Both the position numbers and the translations under genes were made by a program. A stretch of DNA of 64,000 nucleotides from Mobula hypostoma (Eukaryota): positions 77,688,001 through 77,752,000 of the forward strand of contig NC_086108.1 of assembly GCF_963921235.1 (NCBI RefSeq). Reading direction: 5' to 3'. Positions 1-58,564 of the stretch are shown here, piece after piece. Numbering within the stretch: position 1 is the stretch's first letter; each line of letters opens with the position of its first letter. Under the pieces are notes generated by a model. That model was not told the origin of the DNA, searched no databases, and was given only the letters and a program-made list of their open reading frames with translations.

Positions 1-827
1 AAACATGGGGGTTGGCTAATTGGCCACTGAAACTTGGCACTAGTGTACACTTTGAGGGGAATTGATGGGAATCGGAGCAAACATGTAAGAAAGGAAAGGC
101 AGTGTAGCAGCAGGATTGCTCTGTGAACTGAATGGCCTCCTCCTCTGTGGTAAAGAAGTATGCATGATACATACGAATCATAAATTTGACACAGGTTTCT
201 AATGGGGACATACTTGGGATGACTTCTCTGTCATGTTAGGAATTGGCAAGCATACCCAAATTTGCCATTTTCATTCAGAATTTCAGCATTTGTAATGTTT
301 AAAAATTATATGTATTTCTTTTAAACAGCAGTATTTGTAGGGGGAAATCTCTAAATTATGTATAACTTAAGATTATGTTATGTTTTCCCTTGTCTTGCAG
401 TGTTCTATTCTGCTGCAAAAAGCCAGTTTTCATTGCTTGTATACCCTGTATATGTACGCCTATGGCAGCAATAAATTTGAACTTGAACTTGTTTTTCATG
501 CTAAGCATTGGTTTTACGTGTTTTGGTAAGGTTCTTTTGCAATTAAAAGATAGTATGATGCTATAGGGTACACACAATGCTTTCCAAATATTCATCAGAA
601 ATAATATCTGATTTCAAGCACAAAATCATGTGGCTTAACCAAAAGGAAATCCCAACGAGATTCTGGTCTTAAGTTTCTGAACATTAATGTAGCCTTGTTT
701 TTCTTTATTTCAGCAACATCCTCTGAAGTAAAGCATCAATCTTCTCACTGCACAACTCAACTAATATACTGCACGAGTTGAACTTGACCCCAGCTGAATA
801 CTGGAAGTGTTAAGTCGTTCCATTAAG

Positions 828-1532
828 CTCCTAAAACGTCCTGGTCCAAATAGTTCACAAATTACGATTTCAGTCACTTAGCCGCACCTTTACAAAGATC
901 TTTTACTTCCACTCCCATAACAATGTCCTAACCTGTCTCTCCTTCATCTGCTTCTATGACTTTCATCCTGAGCTTTGCTGTCTTTAAACTTGACAATGAA
1001 CATTTTTGGCCTGCCTGTAAGGTCGTGGCAAGGTTGGCATGGAGGTTGCTGCCTTGATGAACAAAGCAAGATCAAGGCAGCTCACAGGATGAGGAAGGAA
1101 GCAGAAAGCATCTCCTACTGGATATGAAGCAGGCAAGGGGAGTTGAGCTGGAAGTTAGGAGCGGATGAGCAGTGACTTGGCCACCACGGCTGACCCACCG
1201 ACTGGAGAGTGTAGTGGTTAAGGGCCAAAATACTCTATGAAGTTTGGGCATTACCTGACAGCATATGCTGCTGGCCAAAGGCTACAGTTACCTCATCCAG
1301 TAACTGCAGAGAGCACCCCGGTGTATGATGCAATCTCCTAAAATATACTGGTCCAAATAGTTCACAAATTACGATTTCAGCCACTTACCTGCACCATTAC
1401 TAAGATCTCTGATTTCCACTCCTGTAACATTGTCCTAACCAGTCTCTCCTTCATCTGCTTCTATGACTTTCATCCTGAGCTTTGGTGTCTTTAAACTTGA
1501 CTATTACAATGCACATTTTTGGCCTACCTGTA
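828..1532 (+). repeat. Pair of ~195-bp imperfect direct repeats (828-1019 and 1335-1532) flanking a 315-bp insert
   Basis: Both copies run ctcctaaaa...ctggtccaaatagttcacaaattacgatttcag...tctctccttcatctgcttctatgactttcatcctgagcttt...catttttggcct(g/a)cctgta, with scattered substitutions and small indels. Confidence 0.95.
1020..1334 (+). mobile_element. 5'-truncated 3' end of an RLE-type (HERO-like) non-LTR retrotransposon
   Basis: Translates as ..DEQSKIKAAHRMRKEAESISYWI*SRQGELSWKLGADEQ*, resembling the AE.AS.WLW.RR....W C-terminus of HERO-clade elements, followed by a ~160-nt 3' UTR. Family assigned from memory of the motif. Confidence 0.6.
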
Positions 1533-1870
1533 TGTTCTCCATTCCTGCCATGTCTTGATTCATATCAAGTGTAGTTTATCCATTACTCCAGAGTTCACTG
1601 AATGTATAGTCGGACTAATGCACGGTTTTTAAAATTCCCATCTTTTCAGGGTCCGTCAAGACCCACTCTTCCCTAACTTTGCAAATTTTTCCAGCTAGAC
1701 AAAGCTCAAAATACCTGTGTTCCTCAGACGCTGGCTTCTAGTTCATCTCCGAATTTAATCACTGCACCATTGTCAGCCTGCCAAACCCTAAAACCTGGAA
1801 TTTCATCATTAAGCCCTTTTAGCTTTCTACTCTGTATCTTTACCTATGAGTCATCTGTAAATGTATCATT
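1380..1870 (+). mobile_element. Ancient L2-like LINE remnant
   Basis: cttgactattacaatgca...ggcctacct resembles the L2 LDYCN.LL.GLP motif; tttaaaattccc (FKI) and a ctggaat (WN) motif follow. Very degenerate. Confidence 0.5.
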
Positions 1871-2700
1871 TTAACCTCATCTTTCATCAGTTCCATTCAA
1901 TTTTGTTATGTGGCCCAGGAATTTATTGTAGAGCTTGTTTTGAGGTTACTTGAAATGTCAGGGAAATTCCTGAATTCATTATTTCATTGTAATTTTTTTT
2001 CCAAAAGCAAAGGGTTCTAAATATATTAATTTCTCTGGGGCAGCTCCTGTTATGCTTCTGAAAGTGATGTCAGGAAATCAAATGCCATTCTAATTTTAAC
2101 TTTCGGCATCAGCATTGAGGATTCGGGTAAAACAGAAGAAACAAATAAAGTAACAATTGTAAGCAATTCCCAGAAGAGGCTTTGAGCCTTGAATCAGAAT
2201 ATCACGAGCTGCACCAGTATGAAATTCTACATTCCCTACATGAGTTATTCTTCTACATTTCATCAAGCTGAAATTGTCAGAAACATAACTAGGTCAGTCT
2301 CATGAAAACAATGGCTGAGAGCAGATTAGAGTCAAGGTATCCTGCTGCTAGTGAATCAAAGCCTTTCCACTGTCTACAACGCACAAGTTAAGAATGTGAT
2401 TCATCTGCCTAATTGAGTATGGCTCCGACAAAAGGAAGAGAGTTTGGCACCATCTAAGATAAAACAGCTTACCTGATCAGAAATAGAATAATTGGCCTAA
2501 ACCTCCATTCCCTCAATCACTGGTGCATCTTGGTTGCAGTGTGTATGACCTACAAAATGAGCTGTGTTATTTAAGTGCAATTCTGGTCACCTATCTACAA
2601 GAAAAATATCAATAAAATTGAAAGAGTGCAGAGAAAATTTACAAGGATGTTGCCAGTACTTGAGGACCTGAGTAATAGGAAAACATCGAGTTATAGGAAA

Positions 2701-3983: not shown

Positions 3984-4797
3984 TCGAAGGTTCAAAGTAC
4001 ATTTATTATAAAAGAATGTATAAATTTATCACCTTGAAATTTGTCTGCTTATAGATAGCCACAAAGCAGAAACATGAATAACACAATTTTAAATAAAGAC
4101 CAAAATAAACAGTGCATGGAGAAACAGACAGAGAAAAAAAACATGGTGCAAATAATAGAAGCAAGCCAACAGCATTAGTACCAGGCTGAGTCCCAGAACA
4201 GCCAAAGTAGGCCCAAGATAAGCCTCAATCCCCAGTTTCCACACCAGAGGGGCAGAAATGCACAGCAGCCAGCTCAGTTCACAGCCTCGGCATTGCGGAG
4301 AAAGGAAAGCACATTCAAGGGAAAGCAAGTGAAATCAGGCCGAACCTTGCTTCTGTACCCGACATTTGGCCTGCCAGTTGATCTGTGCTGGCATTTAAAT
4401 TGTTCAAGAACCAAGTAGTGCCACTTCTGGGACCTGGATCCTGATGCCCCGGTACACCTGGGCCGGTCCGCCCAAAGCCGGCCTTGATCTCACCAAATTG
4501 GCTCTGCACTTGGAGGAATCCAGCCTCACACCCGAGCTAGGTGGAGGGGCATCAAAACTCTTCCGAACCTCCTCCTCTCCAGATCACTCACTCCTTCTCC
4601 AGTAGCGATACAAACTTTGTCTGCGAACCCGGCGGCTCAAACACATTGCACCTCGCATTGCCCCAGCACGCATATCTCCCGAACCAGCCTTGCTTCATGA
4701 AAGATGTTACAAGTAATGTTCTTAGTTGATTCTCTTGCCTTATGATTTACCAGTAAGCTGTTGCACATCTTCAGTAGCGCCATCTTAAACCGGAAGT
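3984..4797 (-). mobile_element. Non-coding, non-autonomous retroelement, family B
   Basis: Minus strand starts acttccggtttaagatggcgct and ends ataataaatgtactttgaaccttcgaa, a Rex1/Babar-like tail. No RT-coding sequence. Confidence 0.7.
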
Positions 4798-5219
4798 ACC
4801 TATACCTACACCTATTGAACTAAATATTGTACATTTAGACTGGTATCTTACCAGCTGCAGACCCATGGAAAAGAAAAGCTAAAGAAACGGGAATGCCATG
4901 GGATAGTGGTGAAAGGGGGAGTGTGTTTGTGCAGCACCCACTATGGTGGTTCCTAAGTTGAATAGCACCAATTAATCTGGCAAGCATATAAAGTGACATC
5001 TGAAAGAGCAGTGGATGATGTCTCATCGTCTTTGTCTATTGGGTGAAGGTCTTCTCTAAACTGAAACATTCTCATATTTATCCTCAGGCAATCAAATTCA
5101 GTAAACTGGACAATGAATTTAATGTTTTTTAGACAGTGCCTTCCAAATGTGTGAAGCCTGCCACCAAACATGACAAGAATACATGACTGATAGGAGAACC
5201 AGTGCCTGCTGGCTCCACT

Positions 5220-5650
5220 CTAAGTCATACACCATATTATGCAGGAAATATAATTCTATTTTCACTGGGAGCATTGTGAAAGTACCTCACCGGACGGACC
5301 CCAGTGGGCCAAGAGGATGGCTCACTAATGCCATTTCAGGGACAAATAAGAGAAGGGCAACAAATGTAGACATCTCCTACGAATTAAAAAAAGAAAATGT
5401 TACATCCCACTAACTGATTTAAAGAGGAGAACGAACATATGGGATTGCATTGAAAATGCCACCTATGCATTGGGAGCACACAAAAAACCTACGCAAATAC
5501 AAGAAGTTGTTCGCCACCTCAAAACGTATTCGCTCACCAGCTCCATTCTACTTCATCTGCCAAAGAGTCTGCGGTTCCTACATTGACGGTATCAGTTGCC
5601 TCAGAAACATCAAAACCAGATGGAACATAAAAGACTGCATAGAAAGATGA
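5220..5650 (+). mobile_element. RTE-clade LINE 3' end remnant
   Basis: C-terminal zinc-finger-like ICQRVCGSYIDGISCLRN (RTE consensus C..C.R.C.SRIGL.SH.R.H). Confidence 0.6.
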
Positions 5651-5658
5651 TACGTTTA

Positions 5659-5788
5659 CAACAAGGGAAGATCTGCCAATGTTGGAAATCCAAACAATAC
5701 ACACAACATGCTAGAGGAACTCAGCAGGCCGGGCAGCATCTATGGAAAAGAGTAAACAGTTAACGTTTCGGACCAAAACCCTTCGGCA
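5659..5788 (-). mobile_element. PLE-derived mini-insertion with a degenerate hammerhead motif
   Basis: Homologous to the 3' terminus of the PLE at 52467-54106. Flanked by agatgatacgttta (5645-5658) and agaagatacattta (5789-5802). Confidence 0.75.
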
Positions 5789-5914
5789 AGAAGATACATT
5801 TATATTTTATCTTTATCATTAGTTGTATTGACATAGAATTATTCTGAAAATATGAATTGTTTATTTGATTGGCTGGAACACCATTGTGTGCTTTTTATAA
5901 TGTGTCCTTTTCAG

Positions 5915-6230
5915 TTACAAATCTACAATCTCATTGCCCACATCAGGGAACAGGAGGAAATTGCAGGAGGTGCTGAAATCATATTATCTTCAAGGAAGGG
6001 AGACAAGTCCAGCTATGGTAACTAGGGAGGGGTCTTCCAGTTTCTGCGAAGGGAAAGAAATCACCAGGACCCATATCAGTCACCTCCACCCATGTGGCTA
6101 AAGTGTTACTCCCTGAATCACAGTGTGGATTCCATCCACCTTGAGGAACTGCTGACATGATCCTAACACAGGGCAGCTCCACAAAGAATGCTGGAGCAAA
6201 ATTCTCTAAATCCACTGAAAGGATAAACCA
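5915..6230 (+). mobile_element. Degenerate RTE RT fragment
   Basis: RKGDKSSYGN*, and cctgaatcacagtgtggattc = PESQCGF, typical of RTE RT N-terminal motifs. Confidence 0.7.
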
Positions 6231-35040: not shown

Positions 35041-35989
35041 CATCCCATAAACTGAAACCAGTGGTGGCTTTCACATTGTTAATTAGATTTTCCTGTATTT
35101 AGGTAGTTTCTTGAAGCAGTTGGATAACTTCTCAGTTCTTCCAGTTGAAGGAAACAAGTTAAAGTCAGCTGTGAAACCTAGAGCAAAACTCTGAGGTTCG
35201 GCAATAGATAATTTAGGGGATTAAGTAGCTACATGACATTAGTTATGATTTAATTAATTTGTGTAAATTTCTGGAGAAAAGTATTTACATGGAGACATAG
35301 AAAATACAAGAAAGGGCAGGAAGATCAAGCAAGGCTGTAGAAGATAAAGCTCCGATAAATTAGAATAGTTTTAATAGAAGTAATCTCTTCACTGTCTGGG
35401 CTTCACATCAAAAACAGCTCTGTGTTTCTGAAACAGAGATTATTACTTAGATGACGTCTTCTCTTTGGATCATCACCTTGCAGTGGAGAGGCTTGTGGAT
35501 TCCTGAGATCCTAAGAGGGATGCTGACTGGAGTCCAGCCATCTGAATCCACCCCCACCCCACCCCACCCCCAGACCCCGACCCCGACATCCAGTTATGTG
35601 GATTGATCTCTGCAGCTACCTGAGGACCCATCAATAGGTAACCCTTTGGAGGAACATCATACTCGACTTGAGTGATCACACTGCTGCCTTCACATCACCT
35701 TATTCAGTGCTAATGGCCTGATGCAAGATAAACTTCATAATGAAATACAGAATGACAAGAGTCAGCTTAATTGTAAGGCATAAATTGTTTAAGGACTTGA
35801 AAAAGCAAATGAATTTTGCAGAATTGCCAAATCATTCTGTTCTCACTAGCGGTGGAAGTTAAAGTTAAAAGAATTGTGCATAAATACCCACTCTACACTA
35901 GAAGACAGAAATCACTGGAACAGGTCTCTCTTATTTGTGAAATGTTTGTTTGATGATGAACTTAATTAAAAATAAATTACAAAAAAAAA

Positions 35990-36935: not shown

Positions 36936-38892
36936 GCTTGCTTTCCTACAAAAAAATGTATTTATGTACTAAAGTACCAATGGCATTTTTATCACTGCCC
37001 ACATATTATTCTATCTAGAGAAAAGAAATTCTATAGCAGGAAAATAGAGGGAGGAAATACCTCAATTTCCTCAAGAGAGATCTGAGAGGAAGATTCAACA
37101 GTGTATTTCAGATCGTCAAAAATAATTCCAGTTTTGTTTCCTTCCTACCTCCCCCTTTGTTAAACCTAGAACTTTTTTCACTTCCAATAGAAGATCTAAA
37201 GCAGTAATTTTGTTCCCTTTCCATAGATGCTGTCTGACCTTTTGAATACTTCCAGTAACTTTTTGTTTGTATTTCAAACTTAATAGTTATTTTAAAGCCT
37301 TTATTGCCTGATCTCCATCTTTTACAAAAGTGAATTGTTTTACATTATTCAGTTGCTGAAAACCTTCACCATTCCTCACCGCCACACCAGAATGTGAGTG
37401 ACATGTGGCCCAAGAATTTGAACACAAAATCACTCTGTGGGAAACCTATAATCTAAACCACTATGCTGCTGGGTTACAGAAGAATTTTGCTTCTCCAGAT
37501 GAATAGTGTTGCAGGGTGGTAAACAAAAGTCATTGCAATTATCTTGAAGAATAAGTATGCCAATTATTGGTATGATTAATCTTGTTGCTCCATAGCCGGG
37601 CCCCAAAGCAAATGAATAATGTTGGATAATGTGAATTTACTCTATAGAAATATCTTCATAAAATTAAATAAGAAGGACCTATTCCAGTGATTTCTCTGGG
37701 TATTTTAAGCATAATTCCTTCAATTTCCACCAATAGTGAGAACAGACCGCTTTGGCAATTCCGCAAAATGCATTCGCTATTCCAAGTTCCTAAACAATTT
37801 ATGCCTTACAAGTAGGCTGACAACTATTGTCATTCTGTGTTTCCTTCTGAAGTTTATCTTGATCCAGGCCATTAGCACTGAACAAGGTGATATGAAGGCA
37901 CTTAACCTATCAGCAGCTAATTACATAGAATTCCTAAAGGGTCCAAATGCCCATGTGATGGTCTAGTTCACTTATAAAGAGGAAGCTGAAAGAATTAGCA
38001 GTAACAAGAAGAAAATAGTTTGGGACATTCAAATATTTACTCCATTCATTTACTAAAGGCCAATTCATAACTCTCCAAAATGTCAGGAGACTGAGACAGG
38101 GTGTTTAATGAGCCATATCTGTTCATGCACTTAAGCCACTGAGAGATGAGCTTGTTTTTTTAAGCCAAATGCTGAAAAATGTCACTGCTTGTATAATATC
38201 TGTTAGCTGAGACCTCAGAGAAGAATTATGCTTGTTTATGACAGAGAAGGTCTTGTTGCAAATTGTCTTCTCCAATGTTTTCCTTTGAACTCTTGTTTAA
38301 GTAAAATAGCTTGTTATTTTCTTAGTAATGAATTGAAACGGCTATCTTTCTTACCCTTCAACCATCGGACTCCTGATGCAGCGTTCACCACAGAAAACGC
38401 TGAGCACAGCCTGTGGATTCAGTTTCAGGGACTCTATCACTCATGCTATCAGTATTATTTATTTACGGATTGATTGATTATATTTGACAGTTTGACTTCT
38501 TTTGCACAATGGTTTCTTGTCAGTTTGTGTGTAGTTTTTCATTGATTCTATTGCACTTCTTTATTCTACTATGAATGCCAGCAAGAAAATGAATCTCAAG
38601 GTAGTACATGTTAACATATGCATACTTTGATAATGAATTTACTTTAAACTTTGAATTTTGATATTTGCCAATCATACCTGCATGCAAGGCCTTTGTATTG
38701 AAAGAATGGTGCACTCAGTAAATCCCAGCTTTCAAATATCTTTTAAGTGTATCAAGGGCTGTAAAATAATGGTCAGACTGGATCACAAATCAACGATCTC
38801 ACTGAATCATTCCTAAACAATTTCCAATTCTCTGATGCTAATCAGATCATCTTTATCATGGGTATCTAATCACTTAGACCTACATCCCTTAT

Positions 38893-45970: not shown

Positions 45971-46146
45971 GTCCTGTTTAGTAAGTGTGTTTAGTAAGTT
46001 TGTAAATGCCACTGAAATGGATGATAATGGACAATGAAAAAGGTTATCAAAAATTACAGGGGGAATCTTGATCAGCTGAGTTAAAGGGTCAGGAATGGTT
46101 GATGCAGATAAGTATGGGGTGTTCCATTTTGGAAACTCAAATCCAG

Positions 46147-46928
46147 AAGACCATAAGATATAGGAGCAGAATTAGGCTATTCTGCCCTCCTATTCAATTA
46201 TGATTTATTATCCCTCTCAACCCCATTCTCCTGCTTTTCCCCTTAATCTTTGACACCCTTTCTAATCAAGAACCTATCAACATCCATTTAAATATACCCA
46301 ATGGTGTGGCCTCCACAGCCATCTATGGCTGTAAATTCCACAGGTTCACCACCATTTGACTAAGAAATTTCTCCTCATCTCTGTTCTGTTCTAAAGGGAC
46401 GTCCTTCTACTCTGAGGTATACCCTCTGGTTCTAGGCTGCCCTACTGGAAGCAACATCCTCTCCATGTCCACTCTATCTAGGCTTTTCAATATTTGATCA
46501 GTTTCAATGAAATCACAACCCCCCAACCCCCCCACCAATTCTTCTAAACTCTAACGAGAGAAGCCCAGGGCCATCAAATGTCCCTCTCATTCCTGGGATC
46601 ATTCTTGTGAAACTCCTCTGGACCCTTTCCAATGCAATTACCTCCACTCTTAGATAAAGGGTACAACATTTTTCACAATACTCCAAGCAAGTCTGATCAG
46701 TGCCTTAGAGAGCCTCAGCATTACATCCTTGTTTTAATATTTCACTCCTCTCAAACTGAATGCTTACATGGTGTTTGCATTCCTTGCCACTGACTCAATC
46801 TGCAAGTTAACCTGAAAGGAAAGCAACACACATCGAAGTTGCTGGTGAACGCAGCAGGCCAGGCAGCATCTATAGGAAGAGGTACGTTCGATGTTTCAGG
46901 CCGAGAACCTTCGTGTTAACCTGAAAGG
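46147..46928 (-). mobile_element. Antisense CR1 3' fragment
   Basis: Reverse complement of a CR1 3' end (ataagatataggagcagaattagg tail). TSD aatccag at 46140-46146 and 46929-46935. Confidence 0.85.
46822..46914 (-). mobile_element. 93-bp PLE-derived mini-insertion with 16-bp TSD
   Basis: gttaacctgaaaggaa at 46806-46821 and 46915-46930. The insert is the reverse complement of the PLE terminus at ~57934-58027. Confidence 0.9.
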
Positions 46929-47859
46929 AATCCAGGTTGAACTTTCACAGTGAAAGGCAGGGCTGTGGGGGTGCTGTAGAACAGAGGGATCTCGGAGTAA
47001 ACGTACATGGTTCCCTGAAAGTGGAATTGTAGGTAAACAGGATGGTGAAGAAGGCTTTGGCATGCTGACTTTCATAAGTCAGTGCCTTGAATATAAATGT
47101 TGGAAAGTAATTGTGCAGTTATACAAGACACTGGTCAGGAATGGTTGATGCAGATAAGTATGAGGTGTTCCATTTTGGAAACTCAGATCCAGAAGACAAT
47201 AAGATATAGGAGTATTGTGTTCAGTTTTGGTCACCCTGCTACAGAAAGGATGTTATTAAACTAGAAAGAGTGCAGAAAGGATTTATAAGGATGTTGCTAG
47301 GACTTGAGCAACTGAGTTATAGGGAGTGGTTGTTCAGACCAGAACTTTATTCATTAGTGTATAGAGGACTGAAAGGTGGTTTTATAGAGGTGTATAAAAT
47401 CATGAGAGGTATAGATAGGGTGAATGGACTCAGTCCTTTTCCCAGAGATGGATAATCAAGAACTAGAAGGGGGCAGAGGTTTAAGATAAAAGGGGCAAGA
47501 TTCAATGGAAACTTGATGGAATTTCTGTGCACGAAGAGTGGTATCTCTATGGAATCAGCTACCTGGGGAAGTGACTGAGGCAGCTAGAATGACAACTTCT
47601 AAAAGACATTTGGGTAGGTATGTGGATTGGAAAGCTGTAGAAGCTCATGGACCAAATGATGGCAAACGGGAACTGCTTGGATGTGGCATCTTGATCAGCA
47701 TGGACTAGATGGGCAGAAGGGCTCGTTTCTGAACTGTATATTAGAGTCATGGAGTGATACTGATAAAATGTTTTCAGATTCTCCTTGTCCTCGTTGATAT
47801 TTCATGTACCTCTCTGTCCTCCTAATGTCTTTCTTAAGTGCCTTGGTATACCTTATGTA

Positions 47860-57370: not shown

Positions 57371-58027
57371 GCGCAAACAACAGGAATTCTTCAGATGCTG
57401 GAAATTCAAGCAATACACATCAAAGTGTGGCTTCATCTTTACAGTAGAGGAGGCCATGGATAGACATGTCAGAATGGGAATGGGATGTGGAATTAAAATG
57501 TGTGGCCACTGGAAGATCCTGCTTTCTCTGGCGGACAGAGACACACTCAGGTTGGAGGAACAATACCTTATATTCCGTCTGGGTAACCTCCAACCTGATG
57601 GCATGAACATCGACTTCTCTAACTTCCGCTAATGCCCCACTCCCCCTCGTACCCCATCTGTTACTTATTTTTATACACACATTCTTTCTCTCACTCTCCT
57701 TTTTCTCCCTCTGTCCCTCTGAATATACCCCTTGCCCATCCTCTGGGTTCCCCCCCACCCCCGTCTTTCTTCCCAGACCTCCTGTCCCATGATCCTCTCA
57801 TATCCCTTTTGCCAATCACCTGTCCAGCTCTTGACTCCATCCCTCCCCCTCCTGTCTTCTCCTATCATTTTGGATCTCCTCCTCCCCCTCCCACTTTCAA
57901 ATCTCTTACTCACTCTTCCTTCAGTTAGTCCTGACAAAGGGTCTCGGCCTGAAACGTCGACTGCACCTCTTCCTAGAGATGCTGCCTGGCCTGCTGCGTT
58001 CACCAGCAACTTTGATGTGTGTTGCTT
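57371..58027 (+). mobile_element. Short PLE insertion with inverted 5' segment
   Basis: 57371-57540 is antisense PLE sequence, then RLEEQYLIFRLGNLQPDGMNIDFSNFR*, a pyrimidine-rich UTR and agtcCTGACAAagggtctcggcctGAAAcgtcgact. TSD taacagattatct at 57358-57370 and 58028-58040. Confidence 0.92.
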
Positions 58028-58564
58028 TAACAGATTATCTAGTCATTATCATGAGAGTTTGTTCTGTGGAATTTGACTGCTGGGTTTTCCTGCGAGGTCT
58101 GCAGTTTAAAAATACATCATTTACAGTAAAATACTTTGGGGTGGCATTCAAAATCCTATTTAGGTTCATATTCTTGTAGGTTTCTCTGCAGTTACACAAT
58201 GTTTAGGTCCTTGGCCTTGCTCCATGCCTGATACTATCTACTCTTTTGCTGTAAAATCTGTCATGCAAGGAAAAGACTGCTCTTGTTCAGTCTTAATAAT
58301 TTTATTTTTGAGTCCTCTAGCTAATAAGAGTAAAATAGAATCTCCATATTAGAAAATAAATTGGTGATGGGTATTCCTGTTGGTGTTTCAATGATTTTTC
58401 CAGTGAATTGTTTCCTTACCATATGCTCAATTGTTAAATGTTGTGAGACGCATGACAAAACTCATTACACTTTTTATTTGGAAGATAACAACAGCAGGGA
58501 GATGAATTCATATGGCACTTTTACAAAATTAAAACTGCTAGATATGTGGGCAAAAAAATATATT

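Follow-up and report, generated by a model that had tools for sequence, protein, structure and literature searches.

Comparison of the window (the whole 64-kb stretch of DNA analysed in this study) with itself revealed a pair of direct repeats that are 87.6% identical over 201 alignment columns (E 6e-67) and that abut both ends of a short insert. The features of this locus are listed in Table 1. On global alignment the two copies, 195 and 201 nt long, differ by 19 substitutions at 195 aligned positions and by one 6-nt indel; with the limits set earlier (828-1019 and 1335-1532) the count was 18 substitutions at 192 positions (K2P 0.10). Outside the repeats identity is at chance level (5 of 30 positions before and 7 of 30 after), and the pair, checked as a tandem array, proved not to be one. 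The insert measures about 312 nt (1020-1331), or 1020-1333 if both shared A's are counted as element. The first-pass annotation had placed an insert exactly between two copies of a host segment of about 195 bp, with sharp junctions at both ends. The repeats and the sharp 3' junction, defined to 2-3 nt, were confirmed; the coordinates were off by 3 nt, and the 5' junction is fixed only to about 10 nt, similarity to the family beginning at about 1032. A related organism (organism C, see below) has G at 1334, which sets the start of the right copy at 1332, matching the left copy from 825. A deletion of 6 nt in the window's left copy appears to be absent from the left copy of organism C (joint 1512->1000 in organism C, against 1491->985 in organism A), so that the deletion in the window would be the later change. 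The duplicated segment and the right flank resemble the 3' part of an old L2 LINE in translation motifs and may derive from one; no L2 match for the host segment was found with Pfam, with blastn/tblastn or with tblastx against the comparison sequences.

Table 1. Features of the duplicated segment, the insert and the right flank, with positions in the window.
Feature	Position	Strand	Basis
Host segment, left copy (195 nt)	825-1019	+	Self-comparison, global alignment
Zone of the 5' junction, made up of diverged element sequence or of some extra nucleotides	1020-1031	+	Match to the family majority starts at about 1032
Degraded end (last ~50 codons) of a single ORF, C-terminus past the RLE core	1032-1175	+	Match to P0003; 44% over 55 aa to P0012
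Element 3' UTR, intact to the 3' terminus	1176-1331	+	DNA match to L003/L004/L007; loose ends pile up behind 1333 in 4 of 4 runs
Two A's common to the short A tail of the element and the start of the target; likely priming microhomology	1332-1333	+	A run opens the loose-end majority past the 3' end; G at 1334 in organism C; 825-826 is AA
Host segment, right copy (201 nt), running on into the right flank	1332-1532	+	Self-comparison, global alignment, organism C contig 1442-2570
Right flank; looks like the remainder of an old L2 LINE 3' part	1533-1900	+	Resemblance of translation motifs

Near 1050 the ORF end in the insert shows a gap of some 11 nt; an internal stop lies at 1125-1127, and the natural stop at 1173-1175. 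Its last 40 codons, with X at the internal stop, were used as the query. An exhaustive HMMER search among 1.84 billion proteins gave two matches, and a word-indexed protein search with this 40-aa ORF end gave none. P0002, a kinase with a low-complexity repeat, was ruled out as a relative; P0003 (E 1.3e-4, 62% to the insert ORF end) is related and led to P0004, P0005 and P0012. The C-termini of these relatives are collinear with the insert ORF down to the stop codon. At the DNA level, the insert is 73-75% identical to the elements at three loci from other hosts (L003, L004 and L007) over about 1060-1296 and has the same terminal motif as L003; the insert is thus best described as a 5'-truncated 3' end with an intact terminus. 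Analysis of the relatives revealed a non-LTR RT in P0005 (Pfam RVT_1, E 3e-21), a test for which the insert itself is too short, and P0012 matches the RT structures of R2 and L1 (E 5e-17). P0004 has a CX2CX7HX4C knuckle, with a zf-RVT match (E 0.0014) below the Pfam cut-off; downstream of the knuckle a C-terminal PD...E endonuclease region was recognised by eye, so the RLE label is given by motif. No APE domain was found in the relatives with Pfam. A CCHC knuckle (CX2-3CX7-8HX4C) followed by a C-terminal restriction-like endonuclease (RLE) is the order found in RLE LINEs (PMC5678591).

Judged by these matches, the insert represents the terminal 3' part of a non-LTR element that encodes an RLE, and the earlier description of it as the end of a HERO-like RLE element is supported by its likeness to complete elements with RT, CCHC knuckle and RLE. 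The clade is probably Hero, judging by the order of domains, the dispersal to non-specific sites, the range of hosts and general resemblance. The host range and character of the Hero clade are described in PMC3636483, PMC4640811 and PMC9004415, and its members HEROTn, HEROFr and HERODr are mostly not target-specific (PMC3636483, PMC4640811). With the relatives of the insert they share a single ORF that encodes an RT, a CX2CX7HX4C knuckle and, at its C-terminus, a PD...E endonuclease region, as well as dispersed, non-specific sites and occurrence in fish. Among viral contigs no relatives of the element were found. Prokaryote genome contigs gave two related loci (L001 and L002), in two bacterial genome records; L001 also carries tRNA-like repeats, and both loci are therefore probably contamination from an animal host.

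The family and the locus were examined in related organisms by a search for sequencing runs, which returned 15; the organisms share the words of the window to the extent of 0.97 (organism A, which may be the window's own organism), about 0.5 (organism B) and 0.05 (organism C). Four runs (X1, X5, X9 and X11), representing three samples since X9 and X11 come from one, were aligned to 985-2570; runs X13-X15, with next to none of the window's words, were left out. Almost all of the aligned contigs (429 in X1, 321 in X5, 430 in X9 and 419 in X11) fall on the insert; those that depart from the reference stretch behind 1333 number 53, 36, 48 and 50, respectively. The flanks that follow agree only to about 0.4 (0.40 in X1), and their majority letters open with a short A run. 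The departure of many contigs behind this one position into differing flanks shows a dispersed family with a defined 3' end. The flank agreement of 0.40 among the 53 X1 contigs, together with the unrelated flanks in relatives, reveals no target-sequence specificity. The 64-kb window holds one Hero-type copy.

In organism C, a single 538-nt contig connects the end of the left copy, by way of the insert, with the right copy, and another covers 1442-2570; organism B has contigs across both junctions. The presence of the insert and both repeats in organisms B and C means that the insert and the duplication are both older than the split of A and C. The two were never found apart in the three samples examined: among organisms A, B and C neither an empty orthologous site nor an orthologue with the duplication and without the insert was seen, and the 15 runs returned by the search included no more distant carrier of the locus.

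The divergence between the repeats is 9.7% (19/195; 95% CI 6.0-14.8). Organisms A and C differ by 8.2% in the right flank (93/1129), which is similar to the repeat divergence (Fisher P 0.49), and by 11.7% in the insert-containing contig (54/463; P 0.036 against the flank). The repeat divergence thus fits an A-C split that the duplication predates. The first-pass annotation had named three findings that would speak against a target-site duplication (TSD), among them a repeat divergence inconsistent with the divergence of the insert from its consensus; none of the three turned up outright. A mild tension with a single event comes from the six other-copy contigs listed for X1, whose divergence from the insert averages 18.5% (16.5-19.9%), roughly double that between the repeats (Fisher P 0.002). 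These six are a biased sample, the listing being confined to the longest contigs with a likeness of 80% or more. The insert may thus be older than the repeats look; the selection of long, old contigs and faster change in the GC-rich insert soften this tension without removing it.

Our reading of the locus is that one old retrotransposition made both the insert and the duplication, and that the long duplication is an outlier and not the rule in the family (probability roughly 0.6). That the insert and the duplication are products of one event is very probable, a judgement that adds to this sporadic distal nick the probabilities of a family trait and of capture at an existing break, both considered below. 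A single event is favoured because the repeat boundaries coincide with the element ends, with identity at chance level beyond them; because the orientation is that of TPRT, the intact 3' end abutting the right copy with AA shared; because the insert and the duplication are never apart in the three samples; and because the repeat divergence is compatible with the A-C flank distance. The segment-element-segment arrangement, which had been suggested as a possible giant TSD, is therefore upheld in its geometry: repeats of 195 bp abut both ends of the insert, and the 3' end of the element adjoins the start of the second copy, as TPRT with a TSD predicts. As all three organisms hold the filled site, simultaneity is something that we infer.

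Following the general model of TPRT (PMC3636483), the element endonuclease would have nicked the bottom strand just before 825, at a TT/AA step, and the exposed TT would have primed reverse transcription on the short A tail of the RNA. Synthesis would have ended after about 310 nt, leaving a 5'-truncated copy. The top strand would have been opened 195 nt further on (after 1019), not at 5-25 nt, at a distant nick, made perhaps by the element itself, perhaps by the host or during repair, or at the end of a replication fork. The 195 bp between the nicks would then have been unwound and the cDNA end joined to the far end, and fill-in would have produced the order segment-element-segment.

Long TSDs of this kind have precedents in the literature. 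In human L1, up to 10% of the insertions made in HeLa cells, and most of those in NER-deficient cells, have TSDs longer than 100 bp, for which a distal unrelated nick has been invoked (PMC5223499); extreme TSDs of L1 go with 5' truncation (PMC2912911). A sporadic long TSD is plausible on this precedent, especially for a 5'-truncated copy (PMC5223499, PMC2912911). The long-TSD L1 insertions share with the window the order segment-element-segment, a length of hundreds of bases, 5' truncation and the status of a minority outcome; however, L1 uses APE and its cases come from cultured cells, whereas the window holds an old, fixed insertion of an RLE element common to three related organisms. The R9 element of Adineta vaga has a 126-bp TSD (Gladyshev and Arkhipova 2009, as cited in PMC9977147 and PMC3636483). 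Both R9 and the element in the window are RLE elements with a TSD longer than 100 bp, but R9 is specific for a site in the rDNA and its fixed 126-bp TSD is a family trait, whereas the window element is dispersed and provides one case of 195 bp. For Dualen-4b_cRei of Chlamydomonas reinhardtii, TSD-like duplications longer than 50 bp are described in over half of the insertions, with a median of 900 bp (PMC9977147). Dualen-4b_cRei resembles the window element as a dispersed LINE with an RLE and long flanking duplications; it differs in also encoding an APE, a domain that Pfam did not find in the relatives of the window element, and in showing the trait across many de novo insertions. The first-pass annotation, which cited R9, understated the precedent, as long TSDs of human L1 and TSD-like duplications of Dualen are already published (PMC9977147, PMC5223499). 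No statement on the TSD length of Hero was found in searches of open-access literature or in PMC7650587, PMC13580325 and PMC10294476.

The strongest alternative is that the Hero family of rays routinely cuts the second strand 100-300 bp or more away, as R9 and Dualen do, and so duplicates host DNA often. We consider this unlikely. The one copy in the window does have a long duplication, and its presence there, on a type of element that is rare in the window (1 in 64 kb), and not on the abundant LINEs, hints at enrichment and weighs against an outlier. An RLE is encoded by R9 (126 bp) as well as by Dualen (median 900 bp), the two cases published at the level of a family (PMC9977147). TSD length also varies among families of one RLE clade, Utopia having no TSD in arthropods and one of 20 bp in reptiles (PMC4640811), so that negative results from other hosts are not binding. 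Against this stand the relatives from other hosts, described below, and the fact that a single length says nothing on nucleosome spacing, the published long TSDs of L1 ranging from about 240 bp to several kb. The nucleosome-scale cutting distance that had been proposed is therefore unsupported, as one length cannot show periodicity.

Related elements in other hosts were surveyed in metagenome and genome contigs, and 33 distinct loci were all screened for direct repeats across the element. Twenty-two were left out of the targeted test (no intact 3' end, 5' junction or flank; tandem-joined; or a duplicate of another locus), in which the first 60 nt past the 3' end were sought up to 1.5 kb upstream at the 11 loci with an intact 3' end and both flanks. 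The window's own locus scored 46 in this test, against a shuffled maximum of 15. Nothing was found at nine of the 11 loci, including L008, where 4 of 100 shuffles scored as high and the match did not extend. A weak, AT-rich match of 44 nt at L022 did not extend and lay within the shuffled scores, and was ruled out as a long duplication. At L003, a direct repeat of 1910 bp (99%) was rejected as a TSD: its second copy starts about 195 nt past the 3' end, a 60-bp tandem array contains the junctions, and the 3' junction recurs at L004 without the arrangement of L003. This young duplication (4175-6084 and 8587-10496 of L003) brackets the related element in the tandem array, and the DNA duplicated there reads, by motif, like a piece of a piggyBac-type transposase.

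Overall, a long TSD was present in 0 of 10 clean relatives from other hosts (95% upper bound 26%), six of which come from one family in one data set and one of which (L004) shares its 3' junction with L003; the eleventh testable locus, L003, is a rearranged tandem array and uninterpretable, and short-read assembly may under-represent copies with long, near-identical TSDs. The claim that the family cuts its second strand about 200 bp away thus found no counterpart in these relatives. The lack of a long duplication at 10 of the 11 testable loci is the ground on which the duplication in the window is regarded as an outlier, which would be rare in the ray family as well. Two loci, L006 and L007, group with the window element with 98/99 support and are both outside the 11-locus test. 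Short TSDs were likewise not evident in the related copies with intact 3' ends (L004, L014, L018, L019, L022, L026, L028 and L033), which suggests that the usual outcome in these related families is blunt or deleting insertion. Terminal repeats of 84-92 nt at L006 and L018 were ruled out as host duplication, being sequence of the element's 3' end placed before its 5' end. Head-to-tail elements, or a 3'-end piece directly before the 5' end, occur at L005 (85-7320), L006 (1-92), L012 (2769-2997) and L018 (325-408); the partial-tandem form is reportedly also present in the pufferfish element Zebulon.

A very unlikely alternative is break repair, in which a staggered break already present, or a collapsed fork, would have captured the cDNA with no part played by the element endonuclease, and repair synthesis would have duplicated the segment. 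This would yield the same anatomy, and the roughly 10 unassigned nucleotides at the 5' junction are in keeping with it. Local copying of a template appears to occur in this genome, as in the window an 80-bp copy lies about 1 kb from its source (46087-46166 and 47133-47212). However, the 3' end of the insert is intact and its A's are shared with the target, as in ordinary TPRT, whereas endonuclease-independent L1 inserts have usually lost the 3' end and deleted target DNA.

The 80-bp copy is 96% identical to its source. The source spans the junction of a nested LINE insertion; the copy lies farther along in that host LINE, whose sequence it breaks, and each of its ends shows a short match. Its appearance is that of a templated insertion produced by template switching, not that of a TSD. 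Two other repeats were observed in the window. A short repeat of about 95 bp, found at 46807-46929 and also at 57934-58028, is nested at the former position in a minus-strand LINE, with flanking direct repeats of about 14 bp by eye. An inverted pair of about 250 bp (35685-35936 and 37666-37900; 78% identity, about 1.7 kb apart) is possibly formed by the termini of an old transposon, or by two copies of one repeat in opposite orientation.

Two separate events, in which the element hit the seam of a tandem duplication or the segment was duplicated later beside a TSD-less element, perhaps with gene conversion, have equally little probability: such a history agrees with the lack of an empty site in the three organisms, with the apparently greater age of the insert relative to its family and with letters at 1378, 1379 and 1388 shared by both copies of organism C against the right copy of organism A (a weak hint of conversion, two of the three being explained by decay of one CpG). 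Against it, the break or insertion would have had to fall precisely on the seam, at few positions of about 400, and both boundaries match the element ends. Identical stretches shared by the two copies reach 43 nt at most, no more than random placement gives (P 0.13).

The best reading is that the locus contains a real, well-preserved duplication of 195 bp at a truncated RLE LINE, made by a single long-TSD insertion of a kind already known. Routine giant TSDs in a vertebrate Hero family are currently less likely than a single outlier. The second-strand cut of non-LTR elements is poorly understood, and TSD length is its fossil record. It is improbable that a vertebrate Hero family with a single RLE and no site specificity makes giant TSDs routinely, with cuts perhaps set by chromatin and many short duplications left in ray genomes. 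If true, a family-wide giant TSD would provide a new natural model in a dispersed, single-RLE vertebrate element, would mean that giant TSDs need neither site-specificity (as in R9) nor a second endonuclease (as in Dualen), and would generate small duplications overlooked by annotation pipelines that set short TSD limits. Taken as one event, the insertion is a natural germ-line example of an outcome described mostly in cell culture, in an alga and in a rotifer.
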